Shown: piece after piece, positions 2,710-26,560 of the stretch
Layout: each line of letters starts with the position of its first letter
How positions within the stretch are numbered: position 1 is the first letter of the stretch
Source: an uncultured Chloroflexia bacterium
Lineage (GTDB): Bacteria > Chloroflexota > Limnocylindria > Limnocylindrales > CSP1-4
DNA length: 64,000 nucleotides
Reading direction: 5' to 3'
Assembly (NCBI GenBank): GCA_963717255.1
Contig: CAVQVT010000013.1
Span: 96,760 to 160,759, forward strand
Made by a program: the position numbers and the translations under genes
The notes under the pieces: model-generated
Told to the model about the DNA's origin: nothing
The model's database searches: none
The model's input: the letters and a program-made list of their open reading frames with translations, nothing else

Positions 2710-3830
2710 GGGGGCCCGGCGGACCGGGTGCGCGCCCGCCGGTCGGGGGAGCAGGCGCACCCACGGTCGGCCACGGTCGCCGGCGTCGCCGCGGCGGTGG
2801 TGCGTGGCGCGGGCCGCGCCACTTCGCCGGGTTCCTCGGGTGTGCGCTCCTGGGCCTCGTCCTGTTCGTCGCGTTCGTCACCGTGGTCGCGTCCTGGGTC
2901 GCCGCCACCGTGCTCGGGGTCGTCGCGCCCGGCACCGGAGCATCCGCCCCGACCGCGCTCGCGGTCGTCGTGGTCCTCCTCGTCGCGGTCGCCGTCGTCG
3001 GCGCCATGCTGGGCCGTGCCGTCCGCCCCCTGGCGTCGATCGCAGGAGCCGCCGAGCGCCTGGCCGACGGGGACCCGGGCGTGCGTGTCGAGGTCGAAGG
3101 GCCCGGGGCCGTCCGCAGGCTTGCCGTCTCGTTCAACGGGATGGCGGAGCGCCTCGACCGCTCGCGGGCCGACCGACAGGCGCTCCTCGCCGACGTCACC
3201 CACGAGCTGCGCACGCCCCTCCAGGTCATCGCCGGCAGCACCGAGGCGATGCTCGACGGCGTCCATCCGCGGGATGACGCCCACCTCGCCCCGATCCTCG
3301 CCGAGACGCGGGTCATGGACCGACTGCTCGACGACCTCCGGACGCTCTCGCTCGCGGAGGCCGGCGCGCTGCCTCTCCACAAGGAGGAGACGGACCTGCG
3401 ACGGCTGGTCGCCGACGTCGCCGCATCCCATGCCGCCGCGGCACGCGAGGCGGGCCTGACGGTCGCAGCCGATGAGGGCGTGCCGGTCCCGGCGTCGGTC
3501 GACCCGGTCCGGATCCGCGAGGTCGTGGGCAACCTCGTGGTCAACGCGCTCCGTCACACGCCGGGCGGAGGGCGCGTGCGACTGTCGGCGCGGGCGGACG
3601 GTCCGTGGGCCGAGATCGTCGTCGCCGACACCGGCGAGGGGATCGCGCCCGCCGACCTGGACCGCGTCTTCGACCAATTCCAGCGGCGCGCGGACGGCGG
3701 CGGCAGCGGCCTGGGCCTGACGATCGCGCGGGATCTCGTCGCCGCGCACGGGGGGACGATCCGCGCGGAGAGCGACGGCGTGCCGGGGCACGGGACGACC
3801 GTCCGAGTCCGGCTGCCGCGCGGGATCTAG
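2706..3830 (+). CDS. HAMP-domain sensor histidine kinase (BaeS-like)
   Basis: GTGA overlap with the regulator; two TMs, HAMP, ADVTHELRTPL H-box, NLVVNALRH N-box, DTGEGI and GSGLGL G-boxes. Confidence 0.93.
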   Translation: MRGPGGPGARPPVGGAGAPTVGHGRRRRRGGGAWRGPRHFAGFLGCALLGLVLFVAFVTVVASWVAATVLGVVAPGTGASAPTALAVVVVLLVAVAVVGAMLGRAVRPLASIAGAAERLADGDPGVRVEVEGPGAVRRLAVSFNGMAERLDRSRADRQALLADVTHELRTPLQVIAGSTEAMLDGVHPRDDAHLAPILAETRVMDRLLDDLRTLSLAEAGALPLHKEETDLRRLVADVAASHAAAAREAGLTVAADEGVPVPASVDPVRIREVVGNLVVNALRHTPGGGRVRLSARADGPWAEIVVADTGEGIAPADLDRVFDQFQRRADGGGSGLGLTIARDLVAAHGGTIRAESDGVPGHGTTVRVRLPRGI

Positions 3831-3944
3831 GCCGCGGCCACCGGTCGGTGCCGGCCGGCCACCCGCTCCGGTCCGACGCGACGCGCGAACGGCACGACAC
3901 CCGGCCCTGTGCGGACGCGCCGTGCGCGCCCATCCTCCTGTCGC

Positions 3945-4016
3945 ACGGGAGGCGTCGACGCGCGGCCCCCGAAGCGGCCGCCCGGACCGCGCGAGCCACT
4001 GGCGAGACCGACCCGC
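3945..4016 (+). ncRNA. c-di-GMP-II-like riboswitch (GAG-type pocket), copy 1
   Basis: GGA-GGC-GUC-GA-[GCGCGG...CCGCGC]-GA-GCC-ACU-GGCGA-GACCGACC; kink-turn GA/GA; CGCC/GGCG pseudoknot; ends just upstream of the 4039 start; 24-nt identity with 26498-26521. Confidence 0.72.
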
Positions 4017-4038
4017 GCGGGACCCAGAGGATCCGGTC

Positions 4039-4842
4039 ATGGCGCTGCGCAGGCTTCGCGATCGGGGGCCGGTCGTCGCGGTCCTCGCCTGGATGCTCGG
4101 TCTCCTGGCGGCGGGCTGCGTCGCCGGCGCGACCTTCACGCCCCCACCCACGGTGGCACCGTCGAGCGTCGCGGTCGCCTCCAGCGTACCCGCCGACGGC
4201 CCGCCGTCGCTGTCCACCGCGGCCCCGACGACGTCGACCCCGACACCGCTCGAGCCGACTCCTGTGCCGCAGCCCTCGTGCTGGTGCCCGTGCGCCAGCG
4301 CGTCGGCCGCCTACCCGGGGGTCGACATCGCGCGTGTCACGCTTGAGGGCGGCCCGTTCTTCACCCGCGCGACGAACGACCTCGACATCCGTCGGGGCAG
4401 GGGCCTCGTCAGCCCGGCAGAGTCGGTCGTCGACGGCGTCTTCCTCGACCGCTTCCAGCAGTGGGACGAGGGGGCCGTGTGGTGGGAGACGGCACCCGGC
4501 GCGCCCGTCGATTCGCAGTGGATCCGCATCGCGCTCGACGGTGCCTGGACGCTCGAAGGGGCGATCGTGCAGGCCGACGACAACGACACGTACCGGCTCG
4601 CCTACCGGGACATGGCCACGGGAGACTGGATGACGCTCATCACCGTCCAGCCGGAGTACAGCTTCGGGATGGTCACGCGGCCGGACCAGTACGACGACAC
4701 GGCTCGCCTGGACTTCTATCGCACGGTGACGACCGATGCCCTGCAGTTCGAGGCCTATGAGGGGGATGGGATGTACGCGGTCTCGGAGATCCAGGTCTTC
4801 GGGACGCGCGCGGAGGCGAGCACGCCATCGCCCGCGCCGTGA
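4039..4842 (+). CDS. Lipoprotein with Pro/Thr linker and discoidin/F5-8C-like beta-sandwich domain
   Basis: Lipobox LAAGC; QWIRIALDG, QADDND and YAVSEIQVFG resemble discoidin-type carbohydrate-binding folds. Confidence 0.7.
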   Translation: MALRRLRDRGPVVAVLAWMLGLLAAGCVAGATFTPPPTVAPSSVAVASSVPADGPPSLSTAAPTTSTPTPLEPTPVPQPSCWCPCASASAAYPGVDIARVTLEGGPFFTRATNDLDIRRGRGLVSPAESVVDGVFLDRFQQWDEGAVWWETAPGAPVDSQWIRIALDGAWTLEGAIVQADDNDTYRLAYRDMATGDWMTLITVQPEYSFGMVTRPDQYDDTARLDFYRTVTTDALQFEAYEGDGMYAVSEIQVFGTRAEASTPSPAP

Positions 4843-4887
4843 CCGTCGGGCAGCGGGGCGCAGTCGAAGGCATGAAGGGAGGCTGCG

Positions 4888-5388
4888 ATGAAGGCCTGGG
4901 TGATCGTCGTCGCGCTGATCGTCCTGGGCGTGATCGGCGCACTGGCCGGCTACTGGATCGGACACGCCGTCGGGTGGACGACCGACGCGGAGTTCCCACT
5001 GCGGATCGGCGGCGGTGAGCGCGCGATCGGGCTGTCGATCCTCCTGTCGATCGGGGCCGTCATGGCCGGCGCCGGCTGGCTGGTCGCCCGCCCGCTCAGA
5101 CGGACGCGGCACCTGATCGCCGAGGGCGTCGAGGGTCACGCGACCGTGCTGCGCTTCTGGCGGACGGGCCTCACGGCATCCGGTGCGGACGGGAAGCGCC
5201 ACCAGGTCGCGTTCGACCTGGAGATGCACACGGGCGACGGCGTCGACTACCCCGCGAAGGCGCTCGGGATGCTCGACGAGGCCGCCGAGGCGGGCCTGGC
5301 GCCCGGCGGCGAGGTGGTCGTCCGGTACGATCCAGGACATCCGCGATCGGTGGCGGTCGTCGGACCCACAGCACCCGCGGCGCGATAG
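4888..5388 (+). CDS. Membrane protein with OB-like C-terminal domain (DUF3592-like)
   Basis: GGAGG RBS; two TMs; G..G.ATV...V.VRYDP..P motif. Confidence 0.7.
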   Translation: MKAWVIVVALIVLGVIGALAGYWIGHAVGWTTDAEFPLRIGGGERAIGLSILLSIGAVMAGAGWLVARPLRRTRHLIAEGVEGHATVLRFWRTGLTASGADGKRHQVAFDLEMHTGDGVDYPAKALGMLDEAAEAGLAPGGEVVVRYDPGHPRSVAVVGPTAPAAR

Positions 5389-5561
5389 GCGGGCATCGCC
5401 TCACCGACCGACCGGCCCCCGGCCACGCCGTGCGGGCTCACGGGCGGGACGACCCTCCGAGTCCGGCTCCCGCGCGGGGTCCAGGGCGCGCAGGCTCGGG
5501 AGCCCGCCGGCTCGCCGGGCGCCAGCCGGCTCGCCGGGCGCCAGCCGGCGCGCGGTCGCGA

Positions 5562-6215: not shown

Positions 6216-6433
6216 GGCGTCCCTCCTGACGGGGTGGCTCGTCTGGCGCCACGGTACGGGGCGATCCGTCGCGCCCGCCCGCCCGGAACCGCCCGACGGA
6301 CCGTTCCGGGGTGGCATGTCCGAGGCGACCTCCGGCACTTGCGGCACTTCCGTGGACCACGGCCGGGGGTGCATCCTTGTCGCGTCGGCCGGCTGGCCGG
6401 CCGCCGGTGAGCATCGGACCCCGGAGGGCGGAG

Positions 6434-7813
6434 ATGACGGCCCCGAAGCCTTCCGAACCTGACTCCACGACCCGTCTCGGCCCGCTCCGCGTCGGGTTCG
6501 TCTCGACTCGCTTCGCGGGCACCGACGGGGTCTCGCTCGAGACGGCCAAGTGGGCGACGGTTCTCGAGCGGCTCGGCCACACCTGCTTCTACTTCGCCGG
6601 GGAGTGCGATCGACCGGCCGACCGGAGCCACGTCGTGCCCGAGGCGTTCTACCGGCACCCGGAGATCGACGCGGTCAACCGCCTCGCGTTCTCCGCCGGC
6701 CCGCACGAAGAGGTCGCGGCCCGGCCGGCGCGCGACGACCTCGCCCGCTCCCGGCGATGGCCGAACGCTCGTCCGCCCGGCCTCACCGATCGGATCCACG
6801 CGCTTCGGGCGTACCTGAAGGCCGAGCTCGAGACCTTCGTCGGGCGGTATGTCATCGACCTGCTGATCGTCGAGAACGCCAGCTCGATCCCCGTCAACCT
6901 GCCGCTCGGGCTCGCGATCTCCGAGTTCATCGCGGAGACGGGGATCCCGACGATCGCGCACCACCACGACTTCCACTGGGAGCGCCAGCGCTTCTTCGTC
7001 AACTCCGTCCCGGACGTGCTCGCCGCGGCGTTCCCGCCGGCCCATCGGTCGATCCGGCACGTCGTCATCAACTCGCTCCAGGCGGGCGCGCTGGCATGGC
7101 GCCATGGCCTCACGGCCCGCGTCATCCCGAACGTGATGGAGTTCGAGCGAGTGCCCGGGCCGCCGACGACATCGCCCATGGAGCTCCGGCGCGATCTCGC
7201 GATCCCGTCGGGCCACCTCCTCGTCCTGCAGCCGACGCGCGTCATCCCACGCAAAGGGATCGAGCACGCCGTCGAGTTCACGCGCCGCCTTGGCCGGCCC
7301 GCCGTGCTCGTCATCTCCCACGCCGCCGACGACGAAGGGCCGGAGTACGTCGAGCGTGTCCGCGAGTACGCCGCGCTCCTCGGGGTGGATGTCCGGTTCG
7401 AGGACGCGGTGATCGGCGACCGGCCCGGGATGCTGCCCGACGGGCGCCGCGTCCACACGCTCGCGGACGTCTACCCGGCCGCGGACTTCGTGACGTACCC
7501 GTCCGTCTTCGAGGGCTTCGGCAACGCGTTCCTCGAGGCCGTCTACCACCGGCGACCGATCCTCGTGAACAACTACTCGACCTACGAGGTCGACATCCGC
7601 CCCCGCGGGTTCCGCGCCGTCTGGTTCGACGGGTTTATCAGCGAGGCGACGATGGCGCAGGCGCGCCGACTCATCGACGACCCCGCGGAGGCGCGGGCGT
7701 GGGCCGAGCGCAACTACGCGCTCTCGTCCCGCCACTTCTCGTTCACGGTGCTGCAGCGGCATCTCGAAGGCCTGTTGCTCGAGTGCTTCGGCGTGGAAGC
7801 GGCAGCTCCGTGA
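6434..7813 (+). CDS. GT4 glycosyltransferase, mannosylglucosylglycerate synthase (MggS)-like
   Basis: GTDGVSLETAKW, HHHDFHWER, QPTRVIPRKGIE, YPSVFEGFGNAFLEA. Confidence 0.85.
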   Translation: MTAPKPSEPDSTTRLGPLRVGFVSTRFAGTDGVSLETAKWATVLERLGHTCFYFAGECDRPADRSHVVPEAFYRHPEIDAVNRLAFSAGPHEEVAARPARDDLARSRRWPNARPPGLTDRIHALRAYLKAELETFVGRYVIDLLIVENASSIPVNLPLGLAISEFIAETGIPTIAHHHDFHWERQRFFVNSVPDVLAAAFPPAHRSIRHVVINSLQAGALAWRHGLTARVIPNVMEFERVPGPPTTSPMELRRDLAIPSGHLLVLQPTRVIPRKGIEHAVEFTRRLGRPAVLVISHAADDEGPEYVERVREYAALLGVDVRFEDAVIGDRPGMLPDGRRVHTLADVYPAADFVTYPSVFEGFGNAFLEAVYHRRPILVNNYSTYEVDIRPRGFRAVWFDGFISEATMAQARRLIDDPAEARAWAERNYALSSRHFSFTVLQRHLEGLLLECFGVEAAAP

Positions 7814-23055: not shown

Positions 23056-25257
23056 ATGTCCCTGCTCCGTCGCATGGAGAAGCTCCAGCAGGAGGCTGCC
23101 GCGCGCGCGGCCGATGCCAGCGCGGCCGAGACGCCGACTCTGCCGGCCGACACGCTGGCCGGCGATCCGGCGGCGGTCGCCGCTCCGGCGGCGCTGCCAG
23201 CCGACCCGGATGCTGCCGGGCCGGGCGAGTCGGATCCCGCCCCGCGCTCCGCTCTCGCTCCCGCAGCGGCGGATCCCGCACCCGCTCCGGCCGCGCCATC
23301 GCCCCCGAGCGCGGCCGCGGTCATCGCTGCAGCCGCGGCGGCGGCCACCGCCGCCGCGACGGGCGCGCCACCCCCCGCCCCTCCGACCTCTGCCGGGACC
23401 GCGCCGGGCACGCCCGCCGTCCTGCCCGCCGCACCCCAGGCCGCGCGGATGGCGGCCCGATCCGCGGTCCGCGAGGACATGCTCCGCGACGTCCGCATCC
23501 GCCTCCGGACGGAGGCGGCACGCTCGTCGGCATCCCTGGCGGCCGTCGCGGGACCGGACCTCCGCGGTCGCATCGAGGCGATGGTGGACCGGGTCATCGG
23601 CCTCAGCGGGTACGCGGTCACCCGCGACGAGCGGCTCCGCCTGATCGAGGACATGGTCGCCGGGATCCAGGGCTTCGGGCCCATCGAGACGTTCCTGAAG
23701 GACGAGACGGTCACCGAGGTCATGGTCAACGGCCCCGACCAGATCTACATCGAGCGGGCCGGGAAGATCCATCTGACGGACGCCGCCTTCCTCAGCGACG
23801 ACCACGTGCGGCAGATCATCGACCGGATCGTCAGCCCGATCGGCCGGCGGATCGACCAGTCGAGTCCCCGGGTGGACGCCCGCCTACCCGACGGCTCGCG
23901 CGTCAACGTCATCATCGAGCCGCTCTCCCTCGTCGGACCCGTCATCACCATCCGGAAGTTCTCCGCCCACCCGTACACCGTCGACGACCTCGTCCGGTTC
24001 GGGACCGCCACGGCTGAGATGTTCGACTTCCTGCGCGTCTGCGTGGAAGCCCAGTTGAATATCTTCGTGTCCGGCGGGACCGGGTCGGGGAAGACCACGA
24101 CCCTCAACGTGCTCTCATCCTTCATCCCGGAGGATGAGCGGATCGTCACCATCGAGGACGCGGCCGAGCTGCAGCTCCGACAGATGCACGTCGTCACGCT
24201 GGAGAGCCGCCCTCCCAACCTGGAGGGCCTCGGCGAGATCACGATCCGCGACCTCCTGCGCAACGCGCTCCACATGCGCCCGGACCGGATCATCGTGGGC
24301 GAGTGCCGGGCGGGCGAGGCGCTCGACATGATCCAGGCGATGACAGTCGGGCACGAGGGCTCCCTCTCGACCGGCCATGCGAACAGCCCGGCGGACATGC
24401 TCCGGCGCCTCGAGACCATGGTCCTCATGGCGGGGGTGGACCTCCCGCTCCGGTCCATCCGCGAGCAGATCGCCTCCGCGGTCGACGTGATCGTCCACAC
24501 CGCCCGCCTGAAGGACGGCTCCCGGAAGGTCGTCAACATCACCGAGGTGTACGGGATCGAGGACGATCGCATCCTCCTGCAGGACGTCTTCGCCTTCCAA
24601 CAGACCGGCATGCGGGACGGACGGGTCGAGGGCGCGCTCCTGCCGACCGGGATCCGGCCGACCTTCATGGGGAGGTTCAAGGCGAGCGGGATCCAGCTGC
24701 CGCCGGGCGAGTTCGGCATCCCCGCGTTCGACCCATCCCGCCCCGGCCAGGTCCGCGCCGGCAAGTCGCGCTGGGCGAGCGAGGCCGCCACGCAGGACGG
24801 GAAGCCCGCGCCGGTCACCGTCGGGCATGGACGGGTCGCGAAAGCCGGCGGCATGGTCTACGTCTCCGCGATGGGACCGGTCGACCCGGAGACCGGGCAG
24901 CTCGTCGGGGTCGGCGTCCGGGATCAGACCGTCCAGTGCATGCGCAACGTCCAGGCGCGCCTGGAGGCCGAAGGAAGCGGGCTCGACAGGATCGTCTGGG
25001 CGAGCTGGGCGCTGCGCGACCCGTCCGACTTCGACGCGTTCGACGAGGAGTGGGTGCGCTGGTTCCCGGGCGACGCACCCGTCGGCCAGGCGACGCTCAT
25101 GACGCCGGCGCATCGCCGCGCCGGCTTCCGGGTCTCCATCGGCGTCATCGCGCAGGCGGACGCTGATCCGGGCCCGCGGGCGGCCGGGGATCCGGCCCCC
25201 GGCGACGCGCCGGCCGCGAGGACGTCGCACTCGGGGACGCCGCGCCGGAAGCGGTGA
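23056..25257 (+). CDS. cpaF: TadA/CpaF-family secretion ATPase with Ala/Pro-rich N-terminus and C-terminal Rid (YjgF/UK114)-like domain
   Basis: EVMVNGP, VDARLPDGSR, GGTGSGKTT, TIEDAAEL, MRPDRIIVGE; tail MVYVSAMGPVDPETG..QTVQCMRNV..DFDAFDEEW..WF. Confidence 0.88.
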   Translation: MSLLRRMEKLQQEAAARAADASAAETPTLPADTLAGDPAAVAAPAALPADPDAAGPGESDPAPRSALAPAAADPAPAPAAPSPPSAAAVIAAAAAAATAAATGAPPPAPPTSAGTAPGTPAVLPAAPQAARMAARSAVREDMLRDVRIRLRTEAARSSASLAAVAGPDLRGRIEAMVDRVIGLSGYAVTRDERLRLIEDMVAGIQGFGPIETFLKDETVTEVMVNGPDQIYIERAGKIHLTDAAFLSDDHVRQIIDRIVSPIGRRIDQSSPRVDARLPDGSRVNVIIEPLSLVGPVITIRKFSAHPYTVDDLVRFGTATAEMFDFLRVCVEAQLNIFVSGGTGSGKTTTLNVLSSFIPEDERIVTIEDAAELQLRQMHVVTLESRPPNLEGLGEITIRDLLRNALHMRPDRIIVGECRAGEALDMIQAMTVGHEGSLSTGHANSPADMLRRLETMVLMAGVDLPLRSIREQIASAVDVIVHTARLKDGSRKVVNITEVYGIEDDRILLQDVFAFQQTGMRDGRVEGALLPTGIRPTFMGRFKASGIQLPPGEFGIPAFDPSRPGQVRAGKSRWASEAATQDGKPAPVTVGHGRVAKAGGMVYVSAMGPVDPETGQLVGVGVRDQTVQCMRNVQARLEAEGSGLDRIVWASWALRDPSDFDAFDEEWVRWFPGDAPVGQATLMTPAHRRAGFRVSIGVIAQADADPGPRAAGDPAPGDAPAARTSHSGTPRRKR

Positions 25258-26331: not shown

Positions 26332-26446
26332 CGCCGGCCCGCTCTCCGGCCGACGCGAGCGGTGGGATCGCGGATCGAGTCCGACGCCGCCGACGTGACG
26401 GATGACACTTGGCGCGGCGCCGCCGACGAGCGCAGCGTGGGCCCGC

Positions 26447-26521
26447 ACGCGGGAGGCGAGGACGCGCGGGCCGGATCCAGGTCGCCGGGCCCGCGCCGAG
26501 CCACTGGCGAGACCGACCCGC
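26447..26521 (+). ncRNA. c-di-GMP-II-like riboswitch (GAG-type pocket), copy 2
   Basis: GGA-GGC-GAG-GA-[GCGCGGGCC...GGCCCGCGC]-C-GA-GCC-ACU-GGCGA-GACCGACC; loop UCGCC pairs with GGCGA; 40 nt upstream of ATG 26561. Confidence 0.8.
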
Positions 26522-26560
26522 CGTCGACGGGCCGCCCGATGATGGGGCGGAGGGGGAGCG

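Follow-up and report, generated by a model that had tools for sequence, protein, structure and literature searches.

A c-di-GMP-II-GAG riboswitch aptamer in the leader of a putative discoidin-fold lipoprotein gene of an uncultured Chloroflexia bacterium

We analyzed a 64,000-nucleotide (nt) stretch of DNA from an uncultured Chloroflexia bacterium (GenBank assembly GCA_963717255.1, contig CAVQVT010000013.1, positions 96,760 to 160,759 of the forward strand), hereafter the window. Positions 3939..4022 on its plus strand are a true member of a riboswitch family that was catalogued before, the GAG variant among the class II cyclic-di-GMP (c-di-GMP) riboswitches (c-di-GMP-II-GAG, Rfam RF03169). The reading that we favor, and consider highly probable, is that these positions form the ligand-binding domain in an mRNA's 5′ leader, ahead of the coding sequence of a putative discoidin/CBM32-type surface lipoprotein, and that positions 26443..26527 on the same strand are a second copy, placed before a small LiaI/LiaF-like membrane protein. 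The GAG type was reportedly described among variant riboswitches by Weinberg et al. in PNAS in 2017.

Two aptamers of one variant family

A gathering-threshold Rfam scan of the whole window gave two matches only, both to RF03169 and both of full model length (positions 1-86 of 86). Copy 1 (3939..4022, +) scored 62.4 bits (E 5e-10) and copy 2 (26443..26527, +) 63.7 bits (E 2.4e-10), against a curated gathering cut-off of 40 bits. The canonical c-di-GMP-II model, RF01786, gave 30.9 bits for copy 1 and 31.9 bits for copy 2, under its cut-off of 53.5 bits. The sister model for the GCG variant, RF03170, gave 57.3 and 59.4 bits, which is over its cut-off of 47.9 bits but under the GAG scores. An earlier annotation made from the letters of the DNA (the sequence-only reading) had named both the c-di-GMP-II family and its 'GAG' variant and had proposed this covariance-model comparison; both names were correct, with RF03169 the best-scoring model for each copy and the parent model failing.

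The Rfam consensus sequences, as given in the cmscan lines, read GUGCAACCG for the canonical family and GGCGAGACCG for the GAG family, and both window copies read GGCGAGACCG. The sequence-only reading had stated that AACCG reads GACCG here, which is exact. The base preceding GACCG also differs between the families, changing from C to A in the GAG family, and in both copies a GAG triplet replaces the canonical GCA ahead of ACCG. The span that had been proposed, 3945-4842, contains the whole downstream gene and most of the aptamer, but the covariance-model aptamer starts earlier, at 3939.

Within 3939..4022 (+) lie helix P1, helix P2, a kink-turn, helix P3, a CGCC/GGCG pseudoknot, and the GAGACCG core. 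The two leaders, 22.5 kb apart, share the 24-mer GAGCCACTGGCGAGACCGACCCGC, which occurs at exactly two sites in the window (3993-4016 and 26498-26521, both on the plus strand); no chance match was expected with up to two mismatches allowed (100 shuffles), and no other window site was found. Both leaders also have the 5′ sequence CGGGAGGCG, a central helix GCGCGG/CCGCGC that encloses unlike loops, GA opposite GA across a 3-nt bulge in the layout of a kink-turn, and a loop CGCC opposite GGCG. These are the features on which the sequence-only reading had relied, and they were all recovered: the shared 24 nt by the exact two-site search, the common 5′ end and the differing but pairing middle by inspection of both leaders, and the kink-turn and pseudoknot additionally by the cmscan alignment and by pair counts across aligned aptamers.

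The pair counts were made on 39 aptamers, 17 of them full-length copies from this genome and 22 from relatives. Among these close kin, for which the count confirms that the structure fits without proving it independently, the named structure had 83.2% of cells paired, against 31-45% when the 3′ partners were shifted by 1-3 columns. The paired fraction was 98% in P2, 89% in P3, and 98% in the CGCC/GGCG pseudoknot; the inner five P1 pairs were standard in 34 to 39 of the 39 aptamers, and the GA dinucleotides of the kink-turn were invariant or nearly so. Two-sided changes were present at 11 pairs, a number reached by 2 of 500 shuffles. Pseudoknot pairs never covaried, so that this element is backed by conservation only. 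Minimum-free-energy folds of the two leaders were not more stable than shuffles (z +1.1 and +1.3), a comparison that is uninformative at 73-81% G+C.

The window copies share with RF03169 (clan CL00127) its helices, kink-turn, pseudoknot, GAGACCG core, and leader position ahead of exported-protein genes, and there is no family-defining difference; particular to this case are the many copies per genome, the shared promoter box described below, and a host genome that gave no WhiB domain match and is hence probably not actinobacterial. RF03170 belongs to the same clan and has the same architecture, and differs in that the core triplet here is GAG, not GCG. Relative to RF01786, for which crystal structure 3Q3Z is available, the overall architecture and most conserved nucleotides are the same, whereas the core here is GCGAGACCG rather than GUGCAACCG.

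Genes downstream of the two aptamers

Both aptamers are positioned in cis, on the same strand as the gene that follows, 16 and 33 nt ahead of start codons that have Shine-Dalgarno (SD)-like sequences. Behind copy 1, an SD-like AGAGGA (4026..4031, +), read from the sequence, starts 4 nt past the aptamer match and stands 7 nt ahead of the ATG at 4039, which opens the gene for a 267-amino-acid (aa) protein, P0003 (4039..4842, +). By inspection, P0003 is a putative lipoprotein. Its N-terminus, MALRRLRDRGPVVAVLAWMLGLLAAGC, has the look of a signal peptide with a lipobox, LAAGC, ending in Cys27; it begins with basic residues, and residues 7-25 form a hydrophobic helix in the AlphaFold model. A Pro/Thr/Ser-rich linker then leads to a globular domain of discoidin/CBM32 fold at about aa 91-260.

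P0003 itself matched no Pfam family at E ≤ 0.01, PF00754 included. A search of a large protein collection with P0003 gave 35 proteins, the query among them, and 34 sequences were aligned; 16 of these 34 homologs match PF00754 (F5/8 type C) at E ≤ 0.01, the best at 5e-7, and 10 of the 34 contain a PEP-CTERM motif. The AlphaFold model, built from the homolog alignment, has a predicted local distance difference test score (pLDDT) of 94-98 over residues ~91-260. The best PDB matches of this domain in Foldseek were the CBM32/discoidin structures 2jda, 4lks, 2w1q, and 5y4m (E 2e-6 to 1e-5, probability 1.0), with a TM-score normalized to the target of up to 0.67 and a beta-sandwich on both sides. P0003 is thus like the solved CBM32/F5/8 type C modules in the fold of residues ~91-260 and differs from them in its identity of 10-19% and in falling under Pfam detection. 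The 'discoidin-like' label of the sequence-only reading is accordingly supported at the level of fold, one step removed, through the PF00754 matches of homologs and the AlphaFold/Foldseek comparison. No sugar specificity is readable from the likeness.

The P0003-type domain occurs a second time in this genome, at the C-terminus of a 599-aa Kelch-repeat protein (C6:350382-350900, locus L064; here and below, positions on other contigs are written contig:position), where it is 47% identical. The Kelch-repeat gene also stands behind a GAG aptamer (C6:349002-349084), and two switches here would therefore control the same domain.

The gene that follows P0003 begins 45 nt past it and encodes a 166-aa membrane protein, P0001 (4888..5388, +), for which we found a weak DUF3592 match (E 0.0099), under the cut-off. 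From the 45-nt spacing, it may be co-transcribed with the P0003 gene.

Copy 2 ends 33 nt ahead of the gene for a 73-aa membrane protein, P0004 (26561..26782, +), with GGAGG 7 nt before the ATG. P0004 is LiaI-LiaF-like_TM1 (PF18917, E 2.4e-7; 31.1 bits, with the cut-off at 27), and the G+C content at third codon positions of its reading frame is 0.97. The gene is flanked by those for MscL and a class II aminoacyl-tRNA synthetase. Further upstream in the window, a 733-aa open frame (23056-25254, +) holds a T2SSE (type II/IV secretion ATPase) domain together with an L-PSP endoribonuclease-type domain, and could be either a genuine fusion or the product of an open reading frame (ORF) listing that ran two genes together.

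A genome-wide set of copies and a shared promoter-type box

The genome to which the window belongs (2.90 Mb in 16 contigs, 81% complete, ~73% G+C) has 22 RF03169 matches at E ≤ 0.001; 19 pass the cut-off, 17 of these at full model length. The distance from aptamer to start codon, with start codons picked by us (not taken from annotation) from third-position G+C plus an SD-like sequence, is 14-44 nt for 16 of the 17 full-length copies and 108 nt for the remaining one. The downstream products include putative lipoproteins without a Pfam family, small membrane proteins, an alpha/beta hydrolase, two membrane-anchored class I methyltransferases and a weaker third, ATC_hydrolase-type, Kelch-propeller, DUF6923, and SCO4226-like proteins, and an ABC ATPase. 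Most of the ~19 GAG switches stand ahead of genes for membrane, exported, or lipid-anchored proteins, which gives the set the look of a cell-envelope regulon.

Four of the riboswitch-controlled genes, C3:280739 (L004), C14:37014 (L016), C7:194760 (L017), and C6:282222 (L014), encode a similar membrane anchor at the N-terminus (MRR.T.LALVAGGA...), fused to unlike enzymes: two are methyltransferases, one is an alpha/beta hydrolase, and one is of ATC_hydrolase type. Leader and anchor together give the impression of a module reused across the four genes. Incomplete copies were observed as well, with truncated GAG-type aptamers at C13:53497-53564 (model positions 10-77), C6:280351-280404 (13-67), and C6:188682-188729 (13-61; 30.6 bits), and a degenerate full-length GAG-like match of only 25.9 bits at C1:179532-179615 (locus L156:232-315). 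These copies, some of which have the promoter box, may be decaying or remodeled switches.

Among same-family relatives, RF03169 matches were present in 30 of 36 other genomes, at up to 36 per genome, and in none of 24 small genomes of a sister family. At least two of the related genomes had a single weak 'GAG' match (loci L054 and L058) that is actually their canonical copy. A P0003 query found no ortholog in 60 family genomes. The nearest ortholog of the P0003 gene, at 80% identity in metagenome locus L065, has the same leader, interrupted by the contig end (L065:1-96), and a homolog 43% identical to P0003 in locus L076 has a GAG aptamer directly upstream. The sole relative of P0003 among the genome contigs, in locus L059 (a Chloroflexia metagenome-assembled genome), has a GCG-variant aptamer 1.5 kb off on the opposite strand, and not ahead of the homolog.

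Most GAG aptamers of this genome are preceded by a 19-nt promoter-type box, GCGACGACNTCCGGCNCTG, whose last base lies 30-31 nt ahead of the aptamer. The order is box, variable spacer of ~21 nt, NANNNT hexamer, aptamer, and in all 17 full-length copies the T of the hexamer falls 2-7 nt before the model start. Over its 17 specified positions, the box was matched with at most three mismatches in 11 of 17 copies (null 0.0004 per site) and with at most five in 14 of 17 (null 0.008). The test is made partly circular by a consensus derived from the tested sequences; however, box and hexamer are separated by a spacer that is not conserved. For copy 1, the box reads GGCACGACACCCGGCCCTG (3891..3909, +), with its last base 30 nt before the aptamer start and three mismatches over the 17 positions; it was also recovered, weakly, by a profile of the box (E 0.34), and a −10-like hexamer, CATCCT, follows at 3931..3936 (+). 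For copy 2, the box has nine mismatches, which is chance level. A sigma-70 consensus scan gave nothing near either copy.

Run over the whole genome, the box profile gave 15 sites at E ≤ 0.01, 11 of them placed 27-41 nt before a GAG-model match. The other four are all intergenic; one precedes the degenerate GAG-like RNA of 25.9 bits, and the leaders behind the remaining three have no aptamer. Of these three, one is in the window at 6315-6343 (+, profile E 0.0039), followed by CATCCT, a leader of ~50 nt, and a gene starting at 6434 (ORF to 7813) whose product begins MTAPKPSEPD. Box sites elsewhere include C9:20686-20704, C9:21727-21745, C9:26218-26236, C6:278658-278676, C14:37126-37144, and others. 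Besides the site at 6315-6343, three sites without a gathering-level aptamer are on contig C1. The reading frame after the 6434-7813 ORF has glycosyltransferase family 4/1 domains. The box has the look of a promoter or regulator site, partly coinciding with the riboswitch set, and its sharing suggests joint control of transcription and translation for the same genes.

Taken together, box and hexamer place the predicted start of transcription at P1's outer edge, and the transcript probably includes the aptamer. Such a start is the opposite of one downstream of the element, which the sequence-only reading had named as telling against its proposal. Directly upstream of copy 1 are genes for an OmpR/PhoB-type response regulator (Response_reg plus Trans_reg_C, window ~2030-2706, +) and a HAMP/HisKA/HATPase sensor kinase (window ~2790-3830, +), both with approximate gene starts; their one link to the box is proximity, and the regulator is a candidate for binding it.

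The canonical aptamer, the ligand, and the mode of action

This genome also has one canonical c-di-GMP-II aptamer, at C7:242025-242094 (−, locus L020), which scores 55.9 bits against the cut-off of 53.5. The gene ~270 nt past it encodes a membrane protein whose HD_5 domain reads HHEWFNGSGYP, and hence an HD-GYP-type phosphodiesterase. Exactly one canonical match over the cut-off was found in 13 of 23 family genomes searched, this genome included (loci of the relatives L054, L058, and L145-L154). Both HD-GYP motifs follow 1117-1347 nt downstream at 10 of the 13 loci; at one more the DNA ends after the first motif, and the last two have just 71 and 1170 nt of downstream DNA. The canonical aptamer with its HD-GYP gene looks like a conserved c-di-GMP feedback circuit, apart from the GAG set.

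The two types differ consistently at one nucleotide. The first A of AACCG is A in all 13 canonical copies (11 reading GUGCAACCG and two GUGCACCCG) and G in all 39 GAG aptamers. In the canonical structure 3Q3Z, A69 reads the base Gα of c-di-GMP by three hydrogen bonds, A70 intercalates between both bases, and G73 reads Gβ (PMC13715770). The A-A-N-N-G spacing fits AACCG, from which we infer that AACCG corresponds to A69-G73 and that the variant has G in place of the Gα reader while keeping the equivalents of A70 and G73. With one reader swapped and the others kept, a changed specificity is plausible, with one guanine still recognized; the shift in specificity that the sequence-only reading had offered as a possibility is consistent with this.

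It follows that the same RNA family and the same placement might serve a ligand other than c-di-GMP, with two circuits in the cell, a canonical one on the HD-GYP gene and another made of GAG copies on envelope genes. We regard this as possible, though not the reading to be preferred. The invariant G of the 39 GAG aptamers at a position where same-family canonical copies have A, the location of this change at the presumed Gα reader, and the coexistence in one genome of a canonical copy with a different type of target gene all speak for it. The abstract of Weinberg et al. (PNAS, 2017) is also said to raise the possibility that variants of c-di-GMP-I and -II recognize different signaling molecules. 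A precedent for an aptamer class that changed its ligand is the c-di-GMP class GEMM-I, in which the change arises through few alterations of the binding pocket; GEMM-I is, however, structurally unlike class II, and the precedent was established for it and not for the GAG variant. On the other side, the surface and envelope proteins encoded downstream are of the kind that c-di-GMP usually controls, and the fixed G could have been inherited from one founder copy that multiplied. Nor was a dedicated synthase for another dinucleotide identified.

Matches to signaling domains in this genome comprise nine GGDEF, two EAL, and one DAC, in addition to the HD-GYP gene, so that c-di-GMP and cyclic-di-AMP signaling are both likely present. 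Two paralogous GGDEF proteins of ~1000 aa (C5:207259-207726, locus L025, and C4:43897-44364, locus L026) retain the GGDEF motif but read N-S-x-Y-L-Y-Q-G-G-N where the canonical GGDEF domains of this genome read N-D-x-x-G-H-x-x-G-D, and have Asn at the position of the base-specifying Asp. Ser at the base-specifying position marks the Hypr GGDEFs that make cyclic GMP-AMP (cGAMP). As partners of the GAG variant, the two divergent paralogs are only a lead and were set aside: matches to the divergent domain were present in 36 of 36 family genomes (E ≤ 1e-20), GAG-less ones included, and this count, which may include other paralogs, gives no discriminating distribution.

In the reading that we favor, of an aptamer acting in cis on the mRNA in whose leader it stands, transcription would run from a promoter with the conserved upstream box and start at the outer edge of P1, and the RNA would bind a guanine-containing cyclic dinucleotide. 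We consider c-di-GMP itself the somewhat probable ligand, another cyclic dinucleotide such as 3′,3′-cGAMP a plausible but lesser candidate, and something else rather improbable. Binding would lock P1 and the pseudoknot and thereby alter ribosome access to the SD that starts 4 nt past P1, amounting to control of translation. The short distance from aptamer to SD and the lack of terminators (a terminator scan gave no terminator-like site in 3700-5500 and none after copy 2) point to translation initiation as the step controlled. Described class II switches ahead of surface-protein genes reportedly switch on, and by analogy with these we lean mildly toward ON with ligand as the direction here.

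Several observations weigh against this reading. Copy 1 has two non-standard P1 pairs and one non-standard P3 pair in the cmscan alignment and carries two one-base deletions relative to the RF03169 model. Accessibility of the SD, compared between the whole leader with its aptamer and the tail alone, showed no consistent shift in 17 copies, and complementarity of the 3′ tail to five aptamer segments did not exceed that of shuffled tails (mean z 0.04 to 0.59, 39 copies); given these null results, the ON or OFF direction is not inferable by computation here. A GCGUCCC tail considered as an anti-P3 strand was rejected: GTCC occurs within 35 nt past the core in 20 of 41 copies and in neither window copy, and duplex energies were at the level of shuffles. 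At a kink-turn position occupied by A in all 39 aligned aptamers, the leader of the 80% identical ortholog in L065 has U. A gathering-threshold GAG aptamer accompanies the P0003-type domain in just one (L076) of the 80 metagenome loci that encode this domain, which makes the association of switch with gene a recent and local one. No ligand of the GAG variant was reported in the literature searched, and the passages retrieved from PMC5737381, PMC10043782, PMC9481103, PMC5473149, PMC9943018, and PMC12452182 likewise contain nothing on it. As a separate observation on the L065 leader, an A disrupts one of its P3 pairs; together with the U, this reflects either weakening of the switch or an error in the sequence.

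Part of the same evidence bears on whether the aptamer acts instead on transcription, through Rho-dependent termination or RNA stability, and not on ribosome binding. No consistent SD-sequestering pairing was found, as that alternative would have it, and intrinsic terminators with U-tracts are rare in very GC-rich genomes, so their absence here is compatible with termination. We nonetheless judge it unlikely, because the SD starts so close behind the copy 1 aptamer and the start codon follows within 14-44 nt in 16 of 17 copies, distances that leave little room for a separate expression platform. It appears very improbable that the copies are remnants of a repeated leader that are in decay and have lost all binding. 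The genome does hold truncated and degenerate copies (C13:53497, C6:280351, C6:188682, and C1:179532), but the two window copies span the whole model, exceed the cut-off by more than 20 bits, and retain all invariant columns of the 39-sequence alignment, and the variable positions of P3 and P1 covary.

A broader and more tentative picture, which we think doubtful as a whole, is that this lineage keeps two class II aptamers side by side for different signals. The canonical copy would feed back on the HD-GYP phosphodiesterase, while the multiplied GAG type, with its fixed G, would sense another dinucleotide, for example one containing adenine, and gate an envelope regulon of ~19 genes whose shared promoter box would be recognized by a single dedicated factor.

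Taken by itself, this instance is ordinary, being the correct call of a catalogued RNA family. Its value lies in the material that it offers for the question of what ligand the c-di-GMP-II-GAG riboswitches bind. The aptamer RNAs, at 84-85 nt, are compact and convenient for binding assays, and one cell provides a natural contrast between a single canonical copy on a phosphodiesterase gene and many variants on envelope genes, with a fixed A-to-G change at the nucleotide that reads the ligand.

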